Below are positions 5,426 through 34,213 of a stretch of 51,135 nucleotides of DNA, one piece after another (position 1 is the first letter of the stretch; each line of letters begins with the position of its first letter). The stretch spans positions 4,600 through 55,734 of the forward strand of contig MQRK01177396.1 in NCBI GenBank assembly GCA_001938485.1. Reading direction: 5' to 3'. The notes below the pieces were generated by a model, which did not search any database, was not told the DNA's origin, and was given only the letters and a program-made list of their open reading frames with translations. The translations under genes and the position numbers were made by a program. The DNA is from Girardia tigrina. Its lineage: Eukaryota.

Positions 5426-8400
5426 TTAGGTGTACAATTATGAAAGTTCGCTTCACTTTGTCTAATATTTTTCCATTAATAAACTTTTTTCTATAACATT
5501 TGTTTGTGTCTATAATGTAGAGTGTTTGAGCGTTTCTAATACGTTTTGAATTTTTAAAAATAATAGCATATAAAATTTCATTGTAATTTTACAGATGACC
5601 ACCGAAGCTCCAACAAAAGAGCATTTGCGGGAAGTTCTTTTATTCATGTTTAACTCGAAGAAAAGTGCCATCGATTCTCAAAAAATGATGGCTGAAGTAT
5701 ATTGCGAAGATACAATCACTGCCAGAGCCTGTCAGAAATGGTTTAAGAGGTTCAGAGAAGGCGAATTTGATCTGAGCAACAGAGACAGCGGTAGACACCA
5801 AAGCAGTTTGAAGACACTGAACGCAACAACAATTAGCTGATGTGTTAGGTGTGACTCAGCAAACAATTTCAAATTGCTTGCATGACATGGGCAAGATTCA
5901 GAAAGAAGGACGATGGGTGCTGCATGAATTGACTGAACACCAGCAAGAAAATCGAAGAACAACGTGCGAAATTTTGCTTGATCGGCAGCAACGCAAGTCA
6001 TTCATGCATCGAATTATCACTGGTGATGAAAAGTACATTTATTTCGATAATCCAAAACGAAAGAGATCATGGACAGTCCTAGGATAGGCACCAAAACATC
6101 CTTGGAAAGAAGGTGCTGCTCTGCATATGGTGAGATTAGAAGGGTATTTTGTATTATGAACTTTGTAAACACAACTCTATTGATTTTGTTAAAATATAAT
6201 AAATAATTTAACTAAAAATATATATTTATATATAACTTCTGTATTTTAATTTTTATATAAAATAATAACAATAATAAAACCAAAAAGACTTACTACGGTA
6301 GGGCTATTCGGCACCGAAAATTTTCATATTTTTTTATTATTATTATTATATTCTCATTAAATGTTCTCTTTAATAAAAAATTATTTTTTTCCACAACCAA
6401 CATTTTAACTCTTATACGTGATTTTAAAATAAATTTATACAAACTCTTTTTTTTATTTTCTTTCATTAAAATTAAATTATAGATATATATATTGATATAA
6501 GAATCGTGATAATCTCAAGAAGATGCATTTTCCTTTATCGTTAAAATAAATTTATAAAAATATTTTTCTTATTTATATCTTCAATACCTTAAGTCTTTCC
6601 AAGATAAAAAAAAGTATGAAAACCCCTCAAATTTTATAATATTTTTATCTTTTGACAATTAAAAGATCTCTTCAAAAATTCTCATAAAAAATTTTCATGA
6701 AAATCTTTGAGTCTCACCAAGATAAAAAAAAGTATGAAAAACCCTTAAATTTTATAATATTTTTATATTTTACAAAAATGTACAAAAACTCTTAAATTTT
6801 ATAATTATTTTTTTTAATTTTTTTATATTGTTATCTTTTGACAATTAAGAGATATCTCTTCCAAAATTCTCATAAAAAATTTTCATGAAAATCTTTGAGT
6901 CTCACAAAGATAAAAAAAAAGTATGAAAAACTCTTAAATTTTATAACATTTTTTATTTTCATCAGTTATGAGATCTCTCTTCAAAAATTCTCATAAAAAA
7001 TTTTCATAAAAAAATTCTCATAAAAAATTATCATAAAAATTCTCATGAAAATCTATAAGTCTCACCAAGATAAAAAAAAGTATGAAAAACCAATAAATTT
7101 TATAATATTTTTATCTTTTGGTAATTAAGAGATATCTCTTCAAAAATTCTCATGAAACAATTTCATGAAAAAAATTACCGTGAAAAAATCTTTAAATCTC
7201 ACGAAGATAAAAAAAGTATGAAAACCTCTTAAATTTTATAATATTTTCTATTTTCATCAGTTATGAGATCACTTATCCACATTATCACAGATCCACATTA
7301 TTAATATGGATTTTCGTTTTAACATGAGCTCGATAGTAAGTTTGTTTATAGAATTTATTACAATTCTTGCAAAAAATATTTTGGATATTTGGGTTCATTT
7401 TTACATTGGAATTTTTTATGTAATTTCAATTTTTTGAATTTTTTTCTGAATTTTTTCGGAAATTTTTTTTTTAATTTTTGCGAATTTTTTCATTAATTTT
7501 TATAAAATCTTATAAAATTTTTATGATTTTTACTATTATTTTTTATTTTGAAAAATTTGAATCATGAACGTGAACAATAGAAATTTTATAGTTTCAGTCT
7601 AAGATTTTTTTGTTCGTGAACCTTGAACAGCATAAAGAAATAAAAAATTTTTGCTGATTTTTGACTGTTTTCGATATTATTTTTACAGATTTAAAAAACG
7701 ATAATAAAATTATATGATTTTTATTTTTATGAAATTTTATTGATTTTTGACTGTTTTTACTATTATTTTTATAAATTTCAAAACAGTAGTAAAATTAGTT
7801 GGAGAAATTTTTTACAAATTTTTTTGATTTTTAGCCGATTTCGAGGATATTTTTTAATATGAAATTTGAAGATTTTTTTCAGAAAATAAATCAATTATTG
7901 ATAGATTTACGAATTTTATCTATTTTATAGCTATTTTACTAGTAAATTTTATGAATTTTATCTATTTTATAGCTATTTTACCGGTAAAAATGAAGTCAAA
8001 GGCAATAATAGTCATTTTACCACGATTTTTGGTGTCCCAGAGACAATATTTTTGCTATTTTACCCTGATTTTGAGAAGTCTAGAATCAACATTTTAGTCA
8101 TTTTACCACGATTTTTGGCGGTAAACGAGCTATTGGCTTTATCCATCCCTTTATATACTAATAATGGTTTAAGAGGTTCAGAATAGGTAATTTTGAACTG
8201 AGCATCAGAGACCGCGGTAGACTACCAAAGTAGTTTGAAGACAATGAAGATGATGCCCAAACGCAACAACAATTAGCTGATGTGTTAGGTGTGATTCAGC
8301 AAATAATTTCAAATCGCTTGTATTACATGGGCAAAATTCAGAAGGAAGGACGATGGGTGCTGCATGAATTGACTGAACACCAGCAAGAAAGTCGAAGAAC

Positions 8401-13250: not shown

Positions 13251-13475
13251 TGATTAAAAATCAATTCACCTGTATATAAATACAAAAATGATGATTATGT
13301 AAAAATATTTCTTTTTTATTTAAAAATTGAAATATAGTTATCATGAATTTTATTTTATTTCAATTTTGAAATGTAAAGATTTTTTGTCAAAATTGAAATG
13401 AAATAAAATTATTTATTGTCTCTCTGAGTATCGTTTCTGATGTAATTGGAAACATTGTGCCACGAGAATTCGCCA

Positions 13476-16243
13476 TGTTACATGTTAAATTTATTTATTT
13501 AATGAAATATTTAACATGAAAAAATCTGGATAATAAAATCTAGATAATTTCTTTAAATAAATAAAAGTATTTTTTGTTGAAAAATAAAGTTTATAGATTT
13601 GTTATTCGTTGTTACAAGCTATCCGGGCAATGATAAGAGATTTAAAAATTATACTCGATCATTTAAAGAAATTTAATGCAAAGGGCAGTTTTCAAATGCG
13701 GAAGAAAAAGTTCAAGATGATTATGAAATCCAGAGGATTTTGGATCCGGTCCCATATCTTCCTTTTTTGTTAACGGATGTTCCGTTAAATATATACATGG
13801 AATTGAATGAAAAGAAACAAAGCAACTGTGAAGAAGTGCTGCAAATCTTGGATAATTCATTCGGATTAACCAGACGATCTGTGTACAGTCAACTGATTTA
13901 TTTGAAATATTACGAATGACAAACTATTGACGATTAAGTTTCTCAAGTAAAGATGCTGGCATTAAAAATCGACAATCTGACCAAGGCAGCCTTTATGGCT
14001 CGATTGCCGTTCGAGTTGCAATTGAATTTAGAACAGGCCGGTGATCAAGATTTAACCGAAATGGTTGAATATAGTCGCAGATATTTAGGAATTAAAAAGT
14101 GCATCACACAAAGTTCAATGTCAGCGGTACAAAACGTTGGTGATGGAAAGATTGTTTCTAAAGAACGAGGTGAGGTCAACCGCGGTAGAAGGAGTTCCTT
14201 TATAAAACCCAGTATGCCACATAACGGAAATCTGGTACAAACAAGGGTAAACCCTTATGAAAATTCTCAGCGCCGATCTAATGGACAAATAATTTGCTAT
14301 AAATGTACGCAACTTTGACATATAGCAAAATATTGCAAGTCGGGAAACGGACAGGGGAGTTTGTAGACGCCGGCTCTCTCCCTCTGAAATTTCCGGAGCT
14401 GCCAACCATGACTGTCATTGTTAACAACAAGTCGGTTACAGCGTTGAAAGATTCAGGTTGCTCAAAAACTGTTGTTTTGAAAGGGTTGGTGAAGGGAAAC
14501 TCATTAAAGTCGAATGAGCAACGAATTGTTTTGTTCAGTGAAGGAAAATGAGATGAGAAAATAGTTGTCGAATTATTCGAGAAAATCAAATTTGTTTTGA
14601 AAAAAGTTAAGGAGGAAGATCCTTGTAGAGGAATATGGAGTATTGATGATTGTAAATACGGCATCATATGGTGTGATGCCAGTTCGATAGCCATTCGGGC
14701 AGCATTGTAAGTTATAGGAAATATTATAGAAGGTTAAGGAAAACTGAAGATTCTAGGCACTTAAACTTAGCAGAACTAGAATTAGTTATAAAGGGTCTAA
14801 ATCTGTTTATTAAATGGGGACTAACGAATGTTGTAGTAAAATCACATAACAAATCAGTTTTTTCTTGGATAACTGAGGTACTATCAGAACGAAATAAATT
14901 ACACACGAAAGCCTCTTCCGAGCTTTTGATAAAGCGTCGATTGTCAATGATTAAGGAGTTGTGTCAGGAATACGAAATAACTTTGAAAATTGAGTTTCTT
15001 AATAGTGAAGACAACAAGGCTGATGAATTGACAAGAATACCCAAACAATTAAAACGAAGCAGTTACCTTTTGTCTGTAACAGATGACCTATTAAAACTAC
15101 AGAAACTGCATGACAGATGTCATTTAAGTGCAAAGAGAATGCAATATCTGTGCGATAAGTTGGAAATAAATGTGTCAAATGCGGATATAAAGGATTTGAC
15201 CTCAAAGTTGTCAATCTATTGATCCGGCGCCAATAAAATGGGGACCTGGAAAATTAGCTGTCAATGAAAACTGGACAAGACTTGCAACGGATGTCACAAA
15301 ATTTGATCAACAAAATTCTTAAGTATCATTGATTGTGGACCCTCTCGATTTACTGTATGGAAACTAATCAAGGCTGAGGATGTCAAGTAGATTGTTACAG
15401 AGTTTTCAAATTTATTCTGCAAGTGTTTATTTATCTCCCACGGAGTTGATTATTGACAATTATACGACATTTTATTCAACAGAATTCAGCAAGTTGATGG
15501 AGAAATGGAATATACATGTCTTATACCGAGCTATTAATCGACCAAATTGCAACGGAATAATAGAGAGAAATCACAAGACAATCACGAGAATTGCGTCTAG
15601 ATCGAATATCAGTATCATGAAAGCCTTATAGTGGTATAACAACACACCGTCCGACGGAAAGGAGACACCTCGTTCAGCACTTTACAAGTACATTTCATTC
15701 GGTTTGGAGATAATCGAAAAAATTGAAAAGGAGCCGGTTTACAATAAGGTAAAGACAGACTTTGTAGAACAACAGTTAGTCTGGATAAAACTTGAAAATA
15801 ATATGCCATGTACAAAGCAATGAACAAGAGGTGTTGTCGTTAGGAAATTGGATCAAAGAAAGTACTTAATAAATTGTGATGGTTTTTTGCGGTCCACGGC
15901 ATATAGCAGATATTCGAACAAGACAACCTGACTTGCTGCGAAACTCTTACTCGGATTACATCTTGGAAAATAACAACGAATCAGCTTCGAGTGTTAAGCA
16001 AAATGAATCGGGAATCAGCAACAGACCCCAAAGAGAAAGACGAAAACCGAATTATTTGAACGAGTATGTAGTAGATATAGATTCTTGTGACGAAGAATCT
16101 TGGGGGAGTGTTACATGTTAAATTTATTTATTAAATGAAATATTTAACATGAAAAATATGGATAATTATTTGTTTATATAATATCTATTTAAAAGTATTT
16201 TTGTTGAAAAATAAATTTTATAGATTTTTTATTCGTTGTTACA
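13476..16243 (+). mobile_element. Compact gypsy-like LTR retrotransposon, RT domain deleted
   Basis: LTRs 13476-13616 and 16109-16243 (TGTTACA...GTTACA), TSD CGCCA/TGCCA, PPT GGGGGAG at 16102-16108. Gag from ATG 13630 with CYKC knuckle, protease LKDSGCS, RNase H DPCRGIW...WCDAS...HLNLAEL, integrase IDN...NGIIERNHKTI. No RT motifs between protease and RNase H. Confidence 0.93.
13617..13628 (+). promoter_or_regulatory. Non-canonical primer-binding site complementary to tRNA-Lys(UUU) nt 1-12
   Basis: AGCTATCCGGGC directly after the LTR-terminal CA. Its reverse complement GCCCGGATAGCT is the recalled 5' end of metazoan tRNA-Lys(UUU). Confidence 0.7.
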
Positions 16244-16568
16244 TGCCATTAGAGTAATCTTTGTATTCTGGATAGTAATTCTATATTGATTTGGTTTTCT
16301 CATATAGAAATTAGACTTATAATATTGATTTGACTCTTTTAAGTAGTATACATAACATTTGTCTCCTACATGGCTAATTGCACTAAATACGAAACTAAGA
16401 TCTTTTAAATAATTTGTAAAAGAATAATTAAACTGATCTATCATTATTTTCAATTTAAACTTATTTTTAATTTTCATCCAGATTTCGCCAAATGTAAGAG
16501 CTTCTGGATATGACATGATGCAAATTTCACTTAGACTAAAAGACCGCAAAAATTCTCATTAACCTCAA
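16244..16568 (-). pseudogene. Paralog of the 1040-1363 exon, interrupted by the LTR element and continuing at 13475 to about 13400
   Basis: RSFSLSEICIMSYPEALTFGEIWMKIKNKFKLKIMIDQ...CYVYYL. Removing the LTR element and one TSD gives continued open reading. Probable frameshifts at both ends. Confidence 0.6.
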
Positions 16569-20940: not shown

Positions 20941-23900
20941 GCAGGACTTTTATTTGTTTTGATAATAAATAATTTGGTAAATGTTGTGTCATATGATTAA
21001 GGACTGTTTGTTTAAATGCTTAAATAAATAATTCTTTAACATTGAACTTGATACGACATGGAGATGAGGACAAAGTATTAAACTGCCTTTTCCACTATTA
21101 CAATTACGATTGTCCTATATTATTCATAATTCATGGCTACAATTACAATTCCATTTTTATCTCTGAACTACAATTCTGCCACCACATGATTGGAGCAGTT
21201 CAATTCATCTTGAAAATTCATTATGACAAGGCCGACCTGAAATTGGTGTTTTTGTCTTTCTGTGGCTCAGAGTGTTACAAATTACTTTCAAGCGTAGTGC
21301 CACTGAAGAATTTACTGGATGATTCATACACATTTTCATTTGAAGATGACAAGGATGTCAACAATCTCAGAATTGTTTTGTTCAATCATCTACGTCCCAA
21401 AATTATTCTTCATCATGAGAGACACAAGTTCTTCATGCTCAAGCAGAAATCTCTCTCTACTCAACCATTCGTTGCTCTCTTGCGACAATTTGCTGCATCG
21501 TGCAATTTTGGTGACCTTCTAGATAGTTTGCTTCTAACCTAGTTCATTAATGGGCTAACTGACACTACACTGCAAACGAGACTATTATTGCAGGCTAACT
21601 TGACATTGGACGTTGCAGTACAGTACTCATTATTACATGAAGCATCTTCATCAATCCAACCATCTATTGATTTTGTTTGCAAGTTTGACAGTCACCAACC
21701 TCAGGACAGCAAAAAATACAAATCTGAGGAATACAAATGCTTCTATTGCGGCAAAACCAACCAAATACGAAAAGACTGCAAGTTTCGCAATGCAAAGTGC
21801 TCAACCTGCCATTCTATGGGCCACATTGCCTCAGTGTGTAGAAGTAGCGAAAACAAGAAACCTGACAAGCACTTCAAAAGCACCAATTACCTCATGGTGA
21901 TAAATGATGATGTGGTAGCAACTTGCGACAATTCTGATCATGGGTTGAAGAAAACACTAAATGTCAATGGTGTTCCTATAACTTTTCTGTTAGACACCGG
22001 TTCTCCAGTCAAGGTTATTCCATGTCGTTTGTTGCCCATAACATCAACCCTACGACCATTTCCACGAGTACAATGTTACAATCGAAGCCCCTTAGACATT
22101 CTTGGTGCCACTGGTGTCACTATATTACATACTGATCAACCAATGGTTTTGGAAATATTATTAGTAAATGGTGATTTGGTACCCCTGTTTGGTCGCATTG
22201 CTCTATTTCTCTTCATATTTTTTCTGTGGCACCAATCACAGTGGACAACAATCTAGGTAATGTCTGTGCTGAATTGGTTCTAAAGCCAGGTATTGAATAC
22301 TCGAAATTTCCAATATTCAAACCTCGCTGACTTCCATTGTCTTTGCGAGAAAAAGTGGAAGAAAGCATCCAGGAACAATTAAAATGTGGAATTCTGGTTC
22401 CTGTCAGTAAAGCGATCATGGCATGTCCGATTGTCCCCATCCTAAAGGCTGATGGCTCAATTCGCATTTGCGGAGATTATTCTCTCACAGCAAATAAATT
22501 TATATATGCAGAACAATATCCTTTGCCAACCTTCGAGGACATAACAACTGCATCGTTTTCTCTCAGTTGGATCTTAAAGGCGCTTATTTGAAGCTTCCTT
22601 TATAAGAAGCATCTCAATGTTACACCACCATATCTACTCACATTGGTCACTTTAACTACACAAAACTGCCTTTCGGAATTTCTTCTTCTCCTCGCATATT
22701 TTAGCAGTTTATTGATCGTCTAATTTGTTTCCCAAGGGTTTGTAGTTACCAAGATGACATTCTGATTGGTGGATTATCTCAAACTGATCATGACACTACT
22801 CTAAAAATGGTCACGGATATTCTTGAGAAATACAAACTACAAGCCAATAAAGAAAAATCAGAATTCAACAAGTTATCAGTTCACTTTCTTGGTTATATAC
22901 CTTCTGCTCATGGTGTATCTCCTGATCCTCATCATTTGGCTCAAATCAACAAACTGCATTCACCAGTCAATAGATCTCAACTGAAATTTATCATTGGCAC
23001 TTTACAATTCTACTCATGTTTCACGCCAGAAATGAGTCAAATGGCAGCTCCTCTGTTTTGCTTGCTAAGCCCAAGAGTTCCTTTCAAGTGGACACCAAAG
23101 GAGGAGGTCACTCTTCAATCACTTGTATCCAAAATAAACCTGACATCAAATCTGGTATTTTATGACATCAAGAAACCGCTCTTTCTCTCTGTGGAGTCCT
23201 CATCCACGGGTTTGGGAGCTGTAATACATTGAAAATAATCTGCTGTAAGAAAATAATCAAATAATACATTGTTCATCACGCACTCTCTCCAGCTGAAAAA
23301 AAATGCTAACATAGAACTTGAATCGCTGGTTATTATCTTTGACATCAAAAGATTTTATCAGTATTTGGCAGGCAGATGATTCACAATTCTAACTGACCAT
23401 GCTCCACTAAAATTTATATTTAATTAAATACTTTAAGTAAATACTTTACAGAGAGAATTTCAATGAGACTTCAAAGATGGGGTTTAATTTTGAAATGTTA
23501 CGATTGTGACATTCAATACATCCGTGGTGAAGAAGTTTTCCTTCCAGATCTTCTCAGCTGTATTCCCGGTAGTAAAGACAGGGATGGAAAGCAAGAAGTG
23601 GATGACATTTTTGTTGCTCAACTATCTTTGGAGGACAAATTTCTTATTTTTAATGACTTGGAAGCTGAAACCAAATCAACTTTACTTAAAACGGTCATTC
23701 ATTGGGTTCAACGCAGTTGGCCTCACAGAATTAAGAAGAAATTTATCCCATACTCATCAAACAAATACGAATATACTGTGGTAAAGGGTTGCCTACACCG
23801 AGGACACAAAGTGGTAGTTCCACCTTCACTTCGTCAAGCTGTTCTTCGATTCTTTCATGAATTTCATCCAGGTATTATTCGCATGAGTCAACTCATGAGC

Positions 23901-24244
23901 CAGTTCGTTTGGTGACCGGGAATGGATGGTGATATACAAAAATTAATCAGCCAGTGTGATCCATGTGCAAAGTCTGAACAATCGAGAGTAAATTACTCAC
24001 CTTCTGCAGGGCCGGAATCAAGCAAATTCTTCCAATGGTTGTTCATCGACTTATTCTTCTTTGATGACAAGAGTTTCCTTACCCTAATTGATCATTTCTC
24101 TAACTTTGTAGACATTCATCTATTAAAGTAGTTATCTTCCAATCAAATCATCAGTGCTCTACAAAAGACATTCTGCTATTTTAGTCTTCCCGATATTATT
24201 GTGTGTTTTGTGGTCAGCTGTAATTGACTATCATCGGGGGATGA

Positions 24245-24412
24245 CACGATCTCGTCTGTGTTCACATTCCGCGCATAATAAACGGCCCCGAAGTTGCCGC
24301 AGCCGATCTGGCGCAAGTCCGTATAGGTGAGCGCGGGGTCGTGCTCGATTGAGAACAGACCTGAGATATCGGGTCGCTTCTTGAATATCGTCGGGCGAAT
24401 CGTGTTGGGCAT
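24245..24412 (-). pseudogene. TAOK: Captured 5' fragment (56 codons) of a TAO-family Ste20 kinase
   Basis: MPNTIRPTIFKKRPDISGLFSIEHDPALTYTDLRQIGCGNFGAVYYARNVNTDEIV matches the recalled TAOK1 N-terminus ([54 protein letters not shown]) and stops just before VAIK. Confidence 0.9.
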
Positions 24413-24650
24413 CTCTATGACGACAAGAGTGACGATGATGAGGCGATTATCGATTGAGAATGTCAATGGATTTTTCGAACTGACCAGATGCCAAAAGAAA
24501 ATCGGTAGAAAATAAATTACGAATTTTGTCGACTGCAGAGACACGCGCGTTTCGTCAATCGATCAATATTGAATATGATTGCGATTCGATTTGACGAAAC
24601 CAAAAGAAAATCGATAGAAAATAAAAACACGCCATTTGTTAAATTTATTT

Positions 24651-24697
24651 TTATGACAATTAATTTCGACGGTATAACCGTCATCGTCAGGTCTCAA
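24651..24697 (-). ncRNA. Hammerhead ribozyme, left arm
   Basis: TTGAGAC-CTGACGA-T-GACGGT TAT ACCGTC-GAAA-TTAATT-GTCATAA. Perfect 6-bp stem II and palindromic stem III ATTAAT. Confidence 0.8.
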
Positions 24698-25190
24698 GAA
24701 AGAAATGAATTTTAAATCTGCTTATATAGGCAAGCAGTGATTATGTCATCCATGGATTATTATGTCATCTAAACACGCTTAATAGGGTTTTCGAGAGACC
24801 CGTTTGCACATTAATCTTAGGATCTAAAGATCTGATATAAAGTGCTTCACAGGCCACCCTCTCCCAATAGTTTTTAAAACGAGAACACAGAATTTTAAAA
24901 TCATTTATGTTTATGTTATATAATAATATATTATGTTATATAATAATATTATGTTATATAATGTTTATGTTATATAAACATAAATGATTTTAAAATTCTG
25001 TGTTCTCGTTTTAAAAACTATTGGGAGAGGGTGGCCTGTGAAGCACTTTATATCAGATCTTTAGATCCTAAGATTAATGTGCAAACGGGTCTCTCGAAAA
25101 CCCTATTAAGCGTGTTTAGATGACACAATAATCCATGGATGACATAATAACTGCTTGCCTATATAAGCAGATTTAAAATTCATTTCTTTC

Positions 25191-25237
25191 TTGAGACCTG
25201 ACGATGACGGTTATACCGCCGAAATTAATTGTCATAA
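25191..25237 (+). ncRNA. Hammerhead ribozyme, right arm
   Basis: Same as the left arm with one stem II mismatch (ACCGCC). Confidence 0.75.
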
Positions 25238-26516
25238 AAAATAAATTTAACAAATGGCGTGTTTTTGTTTTTAAACATAATTTGCCATTATTTTTTAATT
25301 TTTTGATAGAAAATAAATTACGAATTTCTTTGATTATAATGTTTTCTGTTTTATTTAACGAATTATCGATAGAAAACTTTTTGAAAATGAAATATGAAAT
25401 CGAATTATTTTCAAATTCAAATACATGAACTTTGAATAATGTTTATTTTACAAAAAATCCCGCAAAAGCTTTTTACAAATTTATTGACATTAATCCTGTT
25501 AAACAAAAAAATATTGAAATTCCAATTCACAATTAAATAAACAGTTTTTGATAAAAAAGAATTCGTATTATTTTATAAAATTTATTTTTTTATACAAGTA
25601 TTTCACTAAATAATATCATTTCTTCAATCAACAAAAATCATTTTAATAAACGAACAGCAAAAACAAAAAAATAAAATACAATTTTGAAATGTCAGGCAGA
25701 TATTTAATAATTATGTGTAATTATAAATAAGAAATATCGGATTTTTTATATATATATTTAATATTTATAAATACTGATTAAAATTTTGTGTCAAAACTGT
25801 GTGTGATAATGGAAAACAATTTGTCTCCAAGGAATTTTAATCTTACCTTTCAAGTTGCAATATTGACCTCATATTAACTCCAACATACCATTCACCAAGC
25901 AATTGAAAAGCTGAACGAGCAATAAGGAGTGCAAAACTATTTTTATCCAAGAATCTGACTGAAATGGGTTCTGTGGAATTCTGTTTACATCAGTATTGCA
26001 TCGTCAACAATTTCTTCCCTAGCTCAAACGGCACAATTCCCTCAACGGAATATTTGAAACACTCTCCTAAAGTCTTAATGAGGAAAGCACTACTGTCATA
26101 TAAGCAGGGCATAACGGAAGTGGCTATTCCACAAACACAAATGGGAACGACTATAGTTCCAATATCAGGTGGTCGACTAGCTCACAATGAGGGCGTGTTC
26201 CATGAAGAAGCCCGAAGTAGACGCGTTCGTCAACCAAACTCTCGTTACTTCAATAAAAACTTTGTAAATTAATTGTGGGGGGATGTTGTGTCACATGATT
26301 AAGGACTGTTTGTTTAAACGCTTAAATAAATAATTCTTTAACCTTGAACTTGATATGATAGTAAATCTTTCACAAACCTTTACAACACAAAACAGCATCA
26401 AAATATTTGATAAATTTTGAAATAAAAGATATCGCGCTTTACTCACATTTGTGCTTTCCGAAATCAAAGGATTAATTCTTTCATGCAGCAAATAAATTCC
26501 AACAAAACGTTTTTTC

Positions 26517-30430: not shown

Positions 30431-30843
30431 GAGGATTCAATTTTAAATATTATTTTAATATTTGTCGGACTTTATAAGGTTTATCGGATTATGAAAAATT
30501 CTTATTTAAATTGTTTTTTGGTAAATGTTAACTGTCTTAATTTGGTAAAATTTTAATAATGAATAACACTATACCAATCAGAACAAACAAAAACAACCAT
30601 TAGAATAAGAAATAGTTCAACATCTTCTGATGAAGTGTCACAGTATTACTGTACCATGTATCTAATCACTTTTTTCAGTCAGGTCTCATTCCTAGCACTA
30701 TTCTTGATCATATGAGTTTTGTAAACAGAAAATACGTTTTGAATTGGAATAAAAGCAGTCTGGATGAAGATACAAAATCTCCATTTATATTTGTAAAATT
30801 ATCATTACTTAAAAGAAATCCTTTTTAAAACAGAACGCTTATA

Positions 30844-32135
30844 CAGGGTGCGGCAGCTATTTGAGAACAAAATGACATAAAGTTCAAAAAATGAATATAC
30901 AACAGAAAAATAACATTTATTACAATTTAAAATTTTACATATATTAACACGTACANNNNNNNNNNNNNNNNNNNNNNNNNNNNNNNNNNNNNNNNNNNNN
31001 NNNNNNNNNNNNNNNNNNNNNNNNNNNNNNNNNNNNNNNNNNNNNNNNNNNNNNNNNNNNNNNNNNNNNNNNNNNNNNNNNNNNNNNNNNNNNNNNNNNN
31101 NNNNNNNNNNNNNNNNNNNNNNNNNNNNNNNNNNNNNNNNNNNNNNNNNNNNNNNNNNNNNNNNNNNNNNNNNNNNNNNNNNNNNNNNNNNNNNNNNNNN
31201 NNNNNNNNNNNNNNNNNNNNNNNNNNNNNNNNNNNNNNNNNNNNNNNNNNNNNNNNNNNNNNNNNNNNNNNNNNNNNNNNNNNNNNNNNNNNNNNNNNNN
31301 NNNNNNNNNNNNNNNNNNNNNNNNNNNNNNNNNNNNNNNNNNNNNNNNNNNNNNNNNNNNNNNNNNNNNNNNNNNNNNNNNNNNNNNNNNNNNNNNNNNN
31401 NNNNNNNNNNNNNNNNNNNNNNNNNNNNNNNNNNNNNNNNNNNNNNNNNNNNNNNNNNNNNNNNNNNNNNNNNNNNNNNNNNNNNNNNNNNNNNNNNNNN
31501 NNNNNNNNNNNNNNNNNNNNNNNNNNNNNNNNNNNNNNNNNNNNNNNNNNNNNNNNNNNNNNNNNNNNNNNNNNNNNNNNNNNNNNNNNNNNNNNNNNNN
31601 NNNNNNNNNNNNNNNNNNNNNNNNNNNNNNNNNNNNNNNNNNNNNNNNNNNNNNNNNNNNNNNNNNNNNNNNNNNNNNNNNNNNNNNNNNNNNNNNNNNN
31701 NNNNNNNNNNNNNNNNNNNNNNNNNNNNNNNNNNNNNNNNNNNNNNNNNNNNNNNNNNNNNNNNNNNNNNNNNNNNNNNNNNNNNNNNNNNNNNNNNNNN
31801 NNNNNNNNNNNNNNNNNNNNNGCTTACAAATTCTGCATTTCTCATACTGTCCGAACGTCTACAAACTTGTTTCCGTTGCGAAGCTTCAGCCCCATCACCC
31901 TTCGCAGCTCCTAATTCTGTACGAACTTTAAAAACAAACGGGCGACTTTCAAAAATGTAGCAATTTCTGAATCGGTGTGTCCTGCAGCTAATGACACAAT
32001 AACTGCATGCCTTTTCATTTCATTCGTAAGAGTAGCTTCTGCCATGTCTACCAGCAAAAATAAAATTATGTAATTATAACACACAAAAAGATATGGTGTC
32101 TATATTACGTGTTCTCAAATAGCTGCTGCACCCTG
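30844..32135 (-). mobile_element. Tc1/mariner-superfamily (maT-like) transposon, about 1.3 kb, interior in assembly gap
   Basis: 26-bp TIRs CAGGGTGCGGCAGCTATTTGAGAACA with TA on both sides. Transposase N-terminus from ATG 32045: MAEATLTNEMKRHAVIVSLAAGHTDSEIATFLKVAR. Confidence 0.88.
30956..31821. other. Assembly gap (N run)
   Basis: Run of n. Confidence 1.
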
Positions 32136-32784
32136 TATGATTGTTCAATTTTCTTTATTTGATTTTTCGACAAGTCGATGTTTTACACCTCATCGGTTCT
32201 GGTCAGGACTATTACTGAAAAATGTACCGGTCTACTCATCTTAGTAGTGAAATATGTTTACTTAAATGAAGTTAATTCTACTTTATCAAAATGGTCATAT
32301 TTTACCACTGAGATAAGATTATCAGGAACTGTTTTTTGTTTTGATTGTTTTTGGAAAATAAAATGAAGAAAGAGAATGGAACGACAAATGACAGCGCTTG
32401 GTACGGTAATTAAGATTAACTAATAAATCATGGATGAAGAACCGCTGTCGTATGCGAGAAACGCCGATGTTCACTGAGTCCCAACCTTATTCTCATAATA
32501 TTAAAAAAAGTACAAACTAGATGAATATTTAACCAAAATCATTGCGTAGCATTTTAGTCATTAATGAATTTTGTATTGTCATCAAGATTGAGTTTGTATG
32601 ATACATTTCAGCTCGTTTCGACGTTATAAGGTAGTCTAAAATTCAATCGCAAGATTTGAAAAATAAGTACTGCACTCAGACAGACAAAGTAAAACATATA
32701 AGTGTTGTAATTAAAGAGTATTTTACCTTGATATCATTAATTTCGAAATCAATAACATTGATCGGGAAAATTATCTTTAATGTA

Positions 32785-34213
32785 TACCCCGCGATTCAAT
32801 TTTTTTGCAATTCACAAAATATCTAGTTTCTCAACAATCTATATATAATGTTATATATCATTCGATAGGGAATTTAAAACTGCATATTAAATATTCAACA
32901 CATCTTTGTTTTAATGTATTACTTTAATTGTCTTTCCAATTTTGCATTTTTGAAAGTTGTAAATCGATTCAAAATTTTTGCCTTAGTAATGAAAGTAAGC
33001 TGTTGTTTTTAATTTTAAAACTATATTAGTAATTTCATTTTTTACAAATCTTTAGATGACTTTATCATCTGAATTACGAAATTTAATTTATGAAAAATTA
33101 AGGGAGAACATGACCAAAGTCGACATTGCTAAGGCATATAATGTAAGTTTAAGGACCGTATATGGCATTCAAAGGCAAGCAGTAGAACCCAAACCTTCTG
33201 TTAAACGTTCGAAGAACGCTAGGAAATCAAAAGAAGTTGTTAGAAGGGCTGTTAATGCATTCAAAATGAAAAATGAGCGCACATCTTGCACTAAAATAGN
33301 NNNNNNNNNNNNNNNNNNNNNNNNNNNNNNNNNNNNNNNNNNNNNNNNNNNNNNNNNNNNNNNNNNNNNNNNNNNNNNNNNNNNNNNNNNNNNNNNNNNN
33401 NNNNNNNNNNNNNNNNNNNNNNNNNNNNNNNNNNNNNNNNNNNNNNNNNNNNNNNNNNNNNNNNNNNNNNNNNNNNNNNNNNNNNNNNNNNNNNNNNNNN
33501 NNNNNNNNNNNNNNNNNNNNNNNNNNNNNNNNNNNNNNNNNNNNNNNNNNNNNNNNNNNNNNNNNNNNNNNNNNNNNNNNNNNNNNNNNNNNNNNNNNNN
33601 NNNNNNNNNNNNNNNNNNNNNNNNNNNNNNNNNNNNNNNNNNNNNNNNNNNNNNNNNNNNNNNNNNNNNNNNNNNNNNNNNNNNNNNNNNNNNNNNNNNN
33701 NNNNNNNNNNNNNNNNNNNNNNNNNNNNNNNNNNNNNNNNNNNNNNNNNNNNNNNNNNNNNNNNNNNNNNNNNNNNNNNNNNNNNNNNNNNNNNNNNNNN
33801 NNNNNNNNNNNNNNNNNNNNNNNNNNNNNNNNNNNNNNNNNNNNNNNNNNNNNNNNNNNNNNNNNNNNNNNNNNNNNNNNNNNNNNNNNNNNNNNNNNNN
33901 NNNNNNNNNNNNNNNNNNNNNNNNNNNNNNNNNNNNNNNNNNNNNNNNNNNNNNNNNNNNNNNNNNNNNNNNNNNNNNNNNNNNNNNNNNNNNNNNNNNN
34001 NNNNNNNNNNNNNNNNNNNNNNNNNNNNNNNNNNNNNNNNNNNNNNNNNNNNNNNNNNNNNNNNNNNNNNNNNGAAAAATATGTAAGTAAAGAAAAGGGT
34101 GAATATAACGTCTAATAGACATTTAAATTAGCTATTGAATGACATATAATATTCCATATATAGCGTGATGCAATTAGATAATTTATCAATTGTAAAAAAA
34201 TTGAATCGGGGTA
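32785..34213 (+). mobile_element. Tc1-like transposon, about 1.4 kb, interior in assembly gap
   Basis: TIRs TACCCC(GC)GATTCAATTTTTTT(G/A)CAATT flanked by TA. HTH-type N-terminus MTLSSELRNLIYEKLRENMTKVDIAKAYNVSLRTVYGI from 33056. Confidence 0.8.
33300..34073. other. Assembly gap (N run)
   Basis: Run of n. Confidence 1.

Follow-up and report, generated by a model that had tools for sequence, protein, structure and literature searches.

A putative primer-binding site for the 5' end of tRNA in a clade of small LTR retrotransposons

How might an LTR retrotransposon begin minus-strand synthesis when the sequence behind its 5' LTR matches the first nucleotides of a tRNA rather than the 3' CCA end? 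The question is raised by an LTR element of 2768 bp that spans positions 13476-16243 of the window, the whole stretch of DNA that was analysed (51,135 nt). This element is a decayed copy from a clade of small LTR retrotransposons in which a 12-nt tRNA 5' fragment probably primes the minus strand.

The decayed element and its primer-binding site

The element has the hallmarks of an LTR retrotransposon, with two direct LTRs that have TG...CA ends, a target-site duplication and a polypurine tract, and all of its features lie on the forward strand. The 141-bp 5' LTR (13476-13616) aligns with the 135-bp 3' LTR (16109-16243) over 143 columns, 121 of them identical, and the pair is bordered by the copies of a 5-bp target-site duplication (13471-13475 and 16244-16248) that agree at four of five bases. 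Directly behind the terminal CA of the 5' LTR, with zero spacer, lies the putative primer-binding site (13617-13628), an exact complement of nucleotides 1-12 of tRNA-Lys(UUU). A single A separates the site from the gag ATG at 13630. A three-frame reading of the short gag (13630-14366) recovers a zinc-knuckle remnant, recognized as zf-CCHC in relatives, together with a frameshift and stops. The front part of an aspartic protease comes next (14408 to approximately 14560), and behind it the RT that full copies possess has been deleted. The end of the RT thumb with a broken RNase H (PF13456; approximately 14570-15040) and a broken integrase (approximately 15100-16000; Pfam rve and H2C2 in protein P0002) are left, and a polypurine tract (16102-16108) abuts the 3' LTR with zero spacer. 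With its RT deleted and with stops and frameshifts in gag and pol, the window copy is dead. Full copies of the same family are 3.8-3.9 kb long, retain RT and have perfect 5-bp duplications, and elements of the clade measure 3.8-4.3 kb.

A sequence-only reading of this DNA had proposed the order of 5' LTR, site without spacer, single A and gag ATG. This layout is confirmed, and the LTR end is fixed independently of the site by the alignment to the 3' LTR and by the target-site duplication. Perfect 5-bp duplications in the sister copies L090, L092 and L102 confirm the same edge.

The partner tRNA that this reading had named is encoded by the host. Four assembled genes for tRNA-Lys(TTT) (L031 and L032; ARAGORN calls, with Rfam scores of 65.8-74.1 bits) begin with exactly the 12 nucleotides that are the reverse complement of 13617-13628, and the match stops at nucleotide 1, as that reading had it. 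If the reverse complement of the site is extended by three bases, it occurs at four places in the 1.43-Gb genome, all of which are tRNA-Lys(TTT) genes. The pairing is bounded on both sides: neither the -1 base of the tRNA gene nor nucleotide 13 pairs with the flanking element bases, which rules out an extension of the site into the pre-tRNA leader or the D loop. When the site is compared with an incomplete set of host tRNAs (39 sequences, 16 types) to which CCA was added, its best match is at position 1. Priming from the 3' CCA end is ruled out because the site is not complementary to the mature 3' end in these 39 sequences, in agreement with the earlier remark that a TGG-type site is missing. 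Half-tRNA priming from the anticodon loop is likewise ruled out, since the match is to nucleotides 1-12. Copies of the family that were picked by their protein keep the 12-mer rather than a different or TGG-type sequence: nine of 20 such loci have it exactly, two have it with one change, and the rest lack or mask the junction.

Elsewhere in the window lies a second, unrelated decayed Ty3/gypsy element (20982-26400; PF00078 and PF17919) that matches gypsy RNase H models and has lost the end of its 5' LTR together with the primer site. A near-perfect palindrome with 283-nt arms (24641-25247) is nested within it. Long frames without a Pfam match are open on both strands at 30805-34127, and this segment is probably tandem-repeat DNA. 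The tRNA-Glu called by ARAGORN at 6884-6962 falls inside an AT-rich repeat array and is likely spurious.

Site types in the host genome and in other organisms

Exact matches to the LTR end plus the 12-mer number 1452 in the host genome, and a reversed control pattern has none, so the junction between site and LTR is not due to chance. Further families with a Lys-type site contribute at least 198 and at least 143 more copies, and in the fetched loci this site is kept by 132 distinct LTR ends, which fall into 12 clusters. Within one family, the next base is variable while the 12-mer is constant, which indicates that the constraint ends at tRNA nucleotide 1.

A second site type is found behind many LTRs that are unrelated to one another (34 LTR ends in 18 clusters of the fetched loci). 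A pattern that excludes the Lys type has 1194 genome matches compared with 57 for its control, and the second type makes up 78 of the first 100 of these matches listed. Some LTRs that bear it are linked to the same pol clade as the Lys-type elements. It is complementary to the 5' piece of a host tRNA gene that is split by a 1.8-kb insertion (L308), and the 3' piece of this gene contains an anticodon arm with GAA as well as the matching acceptor strand. We read the isotype of the split gene as Phe from its anticodon arm. No intact tRNA-Phe gene was found in the host, and ARAGORN and Rfam recognize neither part of the split gene. Further dedicated site types (Ile, Thr and Met) do not rise above control in the host, where the fly-Phe and L110 types, the two most frequent foreign ones among the metagenome loci considered below, are nearly absent with two occurrences each.

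Several other observations concern these loci. C-to-T or G-to-A changes at CpG positions are present in 21 of the first 100 Phe-type sites listed; they resemble methylation decay, which would be notable if the host is a flatworm. The split tRNA-Phe gene (G000:C181207:89-1947) lies in a tandem array, and its 1.8-kb insertion is accompanied by a 16-bp duplication. Similar junctions recur in L211, L212, L224, L309 and L310, and the insertion is possibly a mobile element that targets tRNA-Phe genes. In L023 (177-564), L478 and L483, elements of one family are located inside or beside LTRs of sister families, a possible insertion preference for related LTRs.

Relatives are not confined to this host. 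The RT-RNase H region has 469 protein matches with E below 1e-30, including barnacle and crab records, and a search of viral contigs found no relatives. A profile built from 60 proteins fetched 78 metagenome loci with 31-44% protein identity. A generic pattern for tRNA 5' ends, constructed a priori from the conserved tRNA positions 1, 8, 9 and 10, matched the LTR/gag junction in nearly all readable metagenome loci. A stricter pattern, written after this result was seen, finds the site in 44 of the 51 loci whose sequence reaches 900 nt or more beyond the protease on its upstream side, and it matches only 56 times in 635,542 nt overall. By eye, the site is recognizable in four of its seven misses, where the LTR end is altered or a small change is present; the other three are without a 5' end. 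Two shorter loci also carry the site, for a total of 46 junctions, and in L110, L119, L125 and L164 a second LTR sets the edge exactly at the site.

The 46 junctions represent 11 site types, including four (L110, L106, L123 and L172) without an assigned tRNA. The commonest type (14 of 46) equals the start of Drosophila tRNA-Phe and corresponds to the 3' end of an antisense probe for the 5' end of that tRNA (given in an excerpt of PMC7038984). The second commonest (11 of 46) is the Phe type of the host. Single metagenome loci equal the starts of tRNA-Lys(UUU) and host tRNA-Lys(CUU), the latter at 12 of 12 positions; covariation of sites with host tRNAs was compared in this one host genome. The site of L180 matches the start of host elongator tRNA-Met at 11 of 12 positions and includes the Met-specific change at nucleotide 12. 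The suggestion of the sequence-only reading that this lineage may prime from a 12-nt tRNA 5' fragment is supported, and each of the three conditions that it had named as refuting turned out in its favor: the host has the tRNA, family copies carry the same 12-mer, and the LTRs examined contain no complement of more than 7 nt. The site feature, as judged by these matches, is clade-wide and appears to involve Phe-, Lys- and Met-type tRNA starts, not Lys alone. Every site type pairs with U8-A9-G10. Where position 9 of a tRNA is a G, methylation of this base is frequent, which may explain the choice of A9-type tRNAs.

A quick protein tree with 55 rows, from which loci with fewer than 200-220 aligned residues were left out, needs at least 17 changes of site type. 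The Lys families of the host form one branch, apart from its Phe-type families. Kin share site types, so the tree does not show coevolution. The metagenome loci (L103-L180) have almost no leader: in 45 of 46 junctions, only 0-43 nt separate the site from the gag ATG, such that a bound primer would overlap the start codon or lie next to it.

Priming mechanism and its alternatives

Nucleotides 1-12 of the tRNA are very probably the primer for minus-strand synthesis, as far as the sequences can tell. Under standard LTR replication, the zero spacer at both primer sites implies that the 3' end of the primer must be nucleotide 12. The site in the element RNA, which abuts the LTR, would pair exactly with nucleotides 1-12 of a host tRNA, and the zinc knuckle of Gag would help this RNA to anneal to the tRNA 5' strand. 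A cut between nucleotides 12 and 13, in the D stem, would then yield the primer 3' end. The likeliest agent, by comparison with the cis cleavage of Tf1, is the RNase H of the element, which would act where the 12-bp RNA duplex ends. Later, when the plus strand is made, RT would copy the primer as far back as tRNA nucleotide 1 and run off, and progeny could inherit the primer sequence as they do in retroviruses.

Folding predictions bear on the annealing step. Binding of the free 12-mer is predicted at -23.5 kcal/mol and the tRNA cloverleaf at -27.5 kcal/mol, and unconstrained cofolding leaves the tRNA closed. Naked RNAs are thus not predicted to open the tRNA, and a chaperone or a prior cut would be needed. 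Cleavage of the tRNA by the element's own RNase H has, by analogy, roughly even chances of being correct; it is favored because the cut position is constant across isotypes and hosts and because Tf1 provides a precedent in cis. The four acidic residues of RNase H are invariant in 60 of 60 proteins, as are the acidic residues of RT. An intact RNase H is needed anyway, and its conservation says nothing about the cutting of an RNA duplex.

Sequence changes within the site carry signs that the primer is copied into progeny. The change from Lys(UUU) to Lys(CUU) accounts for 19 of 37 changes at site position 6 compared with 2 of 25 for the same base change at a control T at position 4 (one-sided Fisher p = 0.0003). 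In families D and E it occurs in 10 of 341 copies versus at most two other changes, a count that omits about 55 copies of family D with another next base. The two largest families, A and B, have no excess of Lys(CUU) changes relative to a control T in the LTR (6 of 16 versus 5 of 16, p = 0.5). None of 200 bootstrap trees unites the copies with Lys(CUU) sites in a single clade, and the starred branches force at least three changes in families E and B; the tree of family A is compatible with a single origin of these sites. The switch trees were built without the site itself, and copies with short flanks or N were left out. Switches to the Met- or Thr-type sites of the host are represented by 0 of 33 matches.

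Aberrant insertions preserve what may be intermediates of this process. L023 consists of an LTR, the site, three bases and an inverted LTR inside a 5-bp duplication, which is the expected shape of plus-strand strong-stop DNA joined to another cDNA end. In L372/L376, a single insertion that was assembled twice, the site leads into a copy of tRNA-Asp from nucleotide 45 to nucleotide 1 and then into the integrase region. The tRNA-Asp insert is identical to host gene L403 at 44 of 45 positions, showing that RT copied a tRNA up to its first base, and Rfam does not recognize the insert when it is examined alone. The jump is accounted for by a 6-nt identity between nucleotides 46-51 of tRNA-Asp and nucleotides 1-6 of tRNA-Lys, and this shared identity fixes the end of the cDNA only to site positions 7-12. 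Such fossils are rare, single events: one palindrome is present among five matches, and 34 additional loci have no further fossil like L023. Breaks exactly at the site edge occur in L407, L415/L418, L372/L376 and perhaps L419, and with a background of 3-4 in 32 copies broken within 200 nt, they suggest a mild excess by this rough estimate. Pieces of tRNA-Asp that extend from nucleotide 1 to about nucleotide 35-44 are also found in L398, L399, L400, L401 and L404. Four of these five have no homology to three elements tested, and the pieces are perhaps retroposed 5' tRNA fragments.

The closest competitor to cleavage by the element's RNase H is a 12-nt fragment made by a host nuclease, either as a pre-formed short 5' fragment or by trimming after annealing, that the element captures. 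We consider this origin possible but rather doubtful. It agrees with the predictions that a free 12-mer binds and that naked element RNA does not open the tRNA, and 5' tRNA fragments, including those of Lys-TTT, are abundant in planarian stem-cell regions (as reported in an excerpt of PMC7962491). The 5' piece of tRNA-Asp also served as an RT template in the L372/L376 fossil. However, the cut position, exactly at the LTR edge, is the same whether the site is of the Phe, Lys or Met type and even when the hosts are distant, which fits measurement by an enzyme of the element, and no copy has a longer tRNA remnant through nucleotide 15, where only the four tRNA genes match.

In retrons, priming from a 2'-OH makes branched RNA-DNA, and RT could in principle extend the 2'-OH of nucleotide 12 in an annealed but uncut tRNA. 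This scheme also predicts a match bounded at nucleotides 1-12 and a zero spacer, but copying of the primer into progeny would need read-through of the 2'-5' link, and Tf1, the precedent in cis, uses a cut (PMC7175516, in part); we regard it as improbable. Still less likely is a primer from another small RNA with a tRNA-like head, such as the transcript of a tRNA-derived SINE or pseudogene. Partial tRNA copies are present in the genome, but the Lys start through nucleotide 15 exists at four places only, all tRNA genes, and the site types follow several isotypes as well as the Lys(CUU) isoacceptor. Similarly slim is the prospect that the site binds tRNA for packaging or for translational control of gag while priming takes another route. 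The short distance to the gag ATG (0-43 nt in all but one of the 46 junctions) would suit such a role, but the site occupies the obligatory primer position with zero spacer, no other tRNA-complementary site is found there, and the aberrant cDNAs L023 and L372/L376 end at it. Priming of the Tf1 type from the element's own 5' end would use a primer of similar length (11 nt in Tf1; PMC7175516), but we give it almost no weight. Barring a 12-mer supplied by a trans-spliced or untemplated 5' end, it is ruled out at the sequence level since the longest complement to the site within the LTR is 5-7 nt in eight of eight elements, which also answers, for the LTR, the earlier concern that the 12-mer might pair with the element's own transcript, and since LTRs differ wholly between families whose site is constant.

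Priming by a tRNA 5' fragment that the element's RNase H cuts leads to a broader picture. Throughout an animal-wide, deep-branching clade, element RNA may displace one strand of tRNA-Phe, -Lys or -Met by pairing with the 5' strand, and the element's RNase H may then cut the tRNA in trans after nucleotide 12. The 12-mer would serve as primer and pass into progeny by copying, and standard primer-site finders, which use tRNA 3' ends only, would have missed the clade. This full combination is a tentative proposal whose chances fall somewhat short of even.

Relation to known elements and priming systems

The pol gene has the order PR-RT-RH-IN with catalytic residues (Pfam order in P0002). Its RT region matches DUF7047 and RVT_3 in Pfam and not the usual gypsy RNase H models. 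The nearest solved folds are the RTs of foamy virus and HIV at 11-16% identity, and retroviral and Ty3 proteins are equally distant among PDB and fold matches. An AlphaFold model (pLDDT 84) has no close relative in Foldseek, and the ESM Atlas returns generic RT clusters only. The clade shares LTRs, a gag with a zinc knuckle, the PR-RT-RH-IN order, a polypurine tract and a 5-bp duplication with Ty3/gypsy elements (Metaviridae), but it differs from them by matching DUF7047 and RVT_3 instead of gypsy RNase H models. The Cigr-1 group, which PMC6238403 lists among the Gypsy clades as a small one found in Ciona and molluscs, is a possible home for it. No description of a primer site in this group was found in the literature searched.

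Truncated tRNA primers are known from Ty1/copia elements. In copia, Ty5, fungal Copia elements and Helenus, roughly one half of a tRNA serves as primer and its anticodon loop is what pairs with the site, a mode that PMC10886601 reports for Copia alone. A 3'-truncated host tRNA as primer and evolving switches of primer type are common to both systems (same source, in part), but here nucleotides 1-12 are paired, the primer would be 12 nt, and the integrase follows RT, whereas in Copia it precedes RT. Tf1 pairs its own 5' end with its site, and RNase H cuts an 11-nt primer (excerpts of PMC7175516 and PMC4600332) between bases 11 and 12 (PMC7175516, in part). Tf1 and Tj1 (Ty3/gypsy) resemble the present clade in using the very 5' end of an RNA as a short primer, but theirs is their own transcript in cis; no such complement exists here, and the partner would be a tRNA in trans. 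Primer inheritance is known from HIV and MLV and from ETn, with its switch from Lys3 to Lys1,2, and is explained by copying of the primer into the site; Ty1 and Ty3 are said to inherit the site strictly from RNA (PMC7472051). Scattered switches between two lysine tRNAs are therefore shared with retroviral primer inheritance, although the retroviral primer pairs through its 3' 18 nt with CCA, behind a spacer of 2-4 nt, in contrast to the 5' 12 nt and zero spacer here. The SL-RNA priming of Oikopleura Tor elements that the sequence-only reading had mentioned does not appear in the portions of PMC4402516 consulted.

Section 3.6 of PMC10886601 names no more than two kinds of primer, one from the 3' end and one, in Copia, from the anticodon loop. 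No published description of priming by a tRNA 5' end was found in searches that included the site sequences and DUF7047, with Repbase, supplements and subscription papers outside their scope; nothing that bears on a 5'-tRNA site is present in the sections of PMC12471100 consulted or in a term search of PMC2774666. There is a modest chance that this priming mode has already been noted somewhere. On the evidence of the sequences, it is likely to be a real, clade-wide variant of truncated-tRNA priming that is apparently undescribed.

If so, it would be a fourth way to start LTR reverse transcription, intermediate between half-tRNA priming and Tf1 self-priming. It predicts either that the RNase H of a retroelement cuts host tRNA at a fixed position in the D stem or that very short 5' fragments have a role. 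When only tRNA 3' ends are used, as in a recent large survey that restricted its search to the final 12 nt (PMC13524379), this abundant clade would look as if it had no primer-binding site. The 12-base site could serve as a diagnostic for the clade, and the tRNA fragments that fuel or block such elements could be those from the 5' end, not the 3' end.
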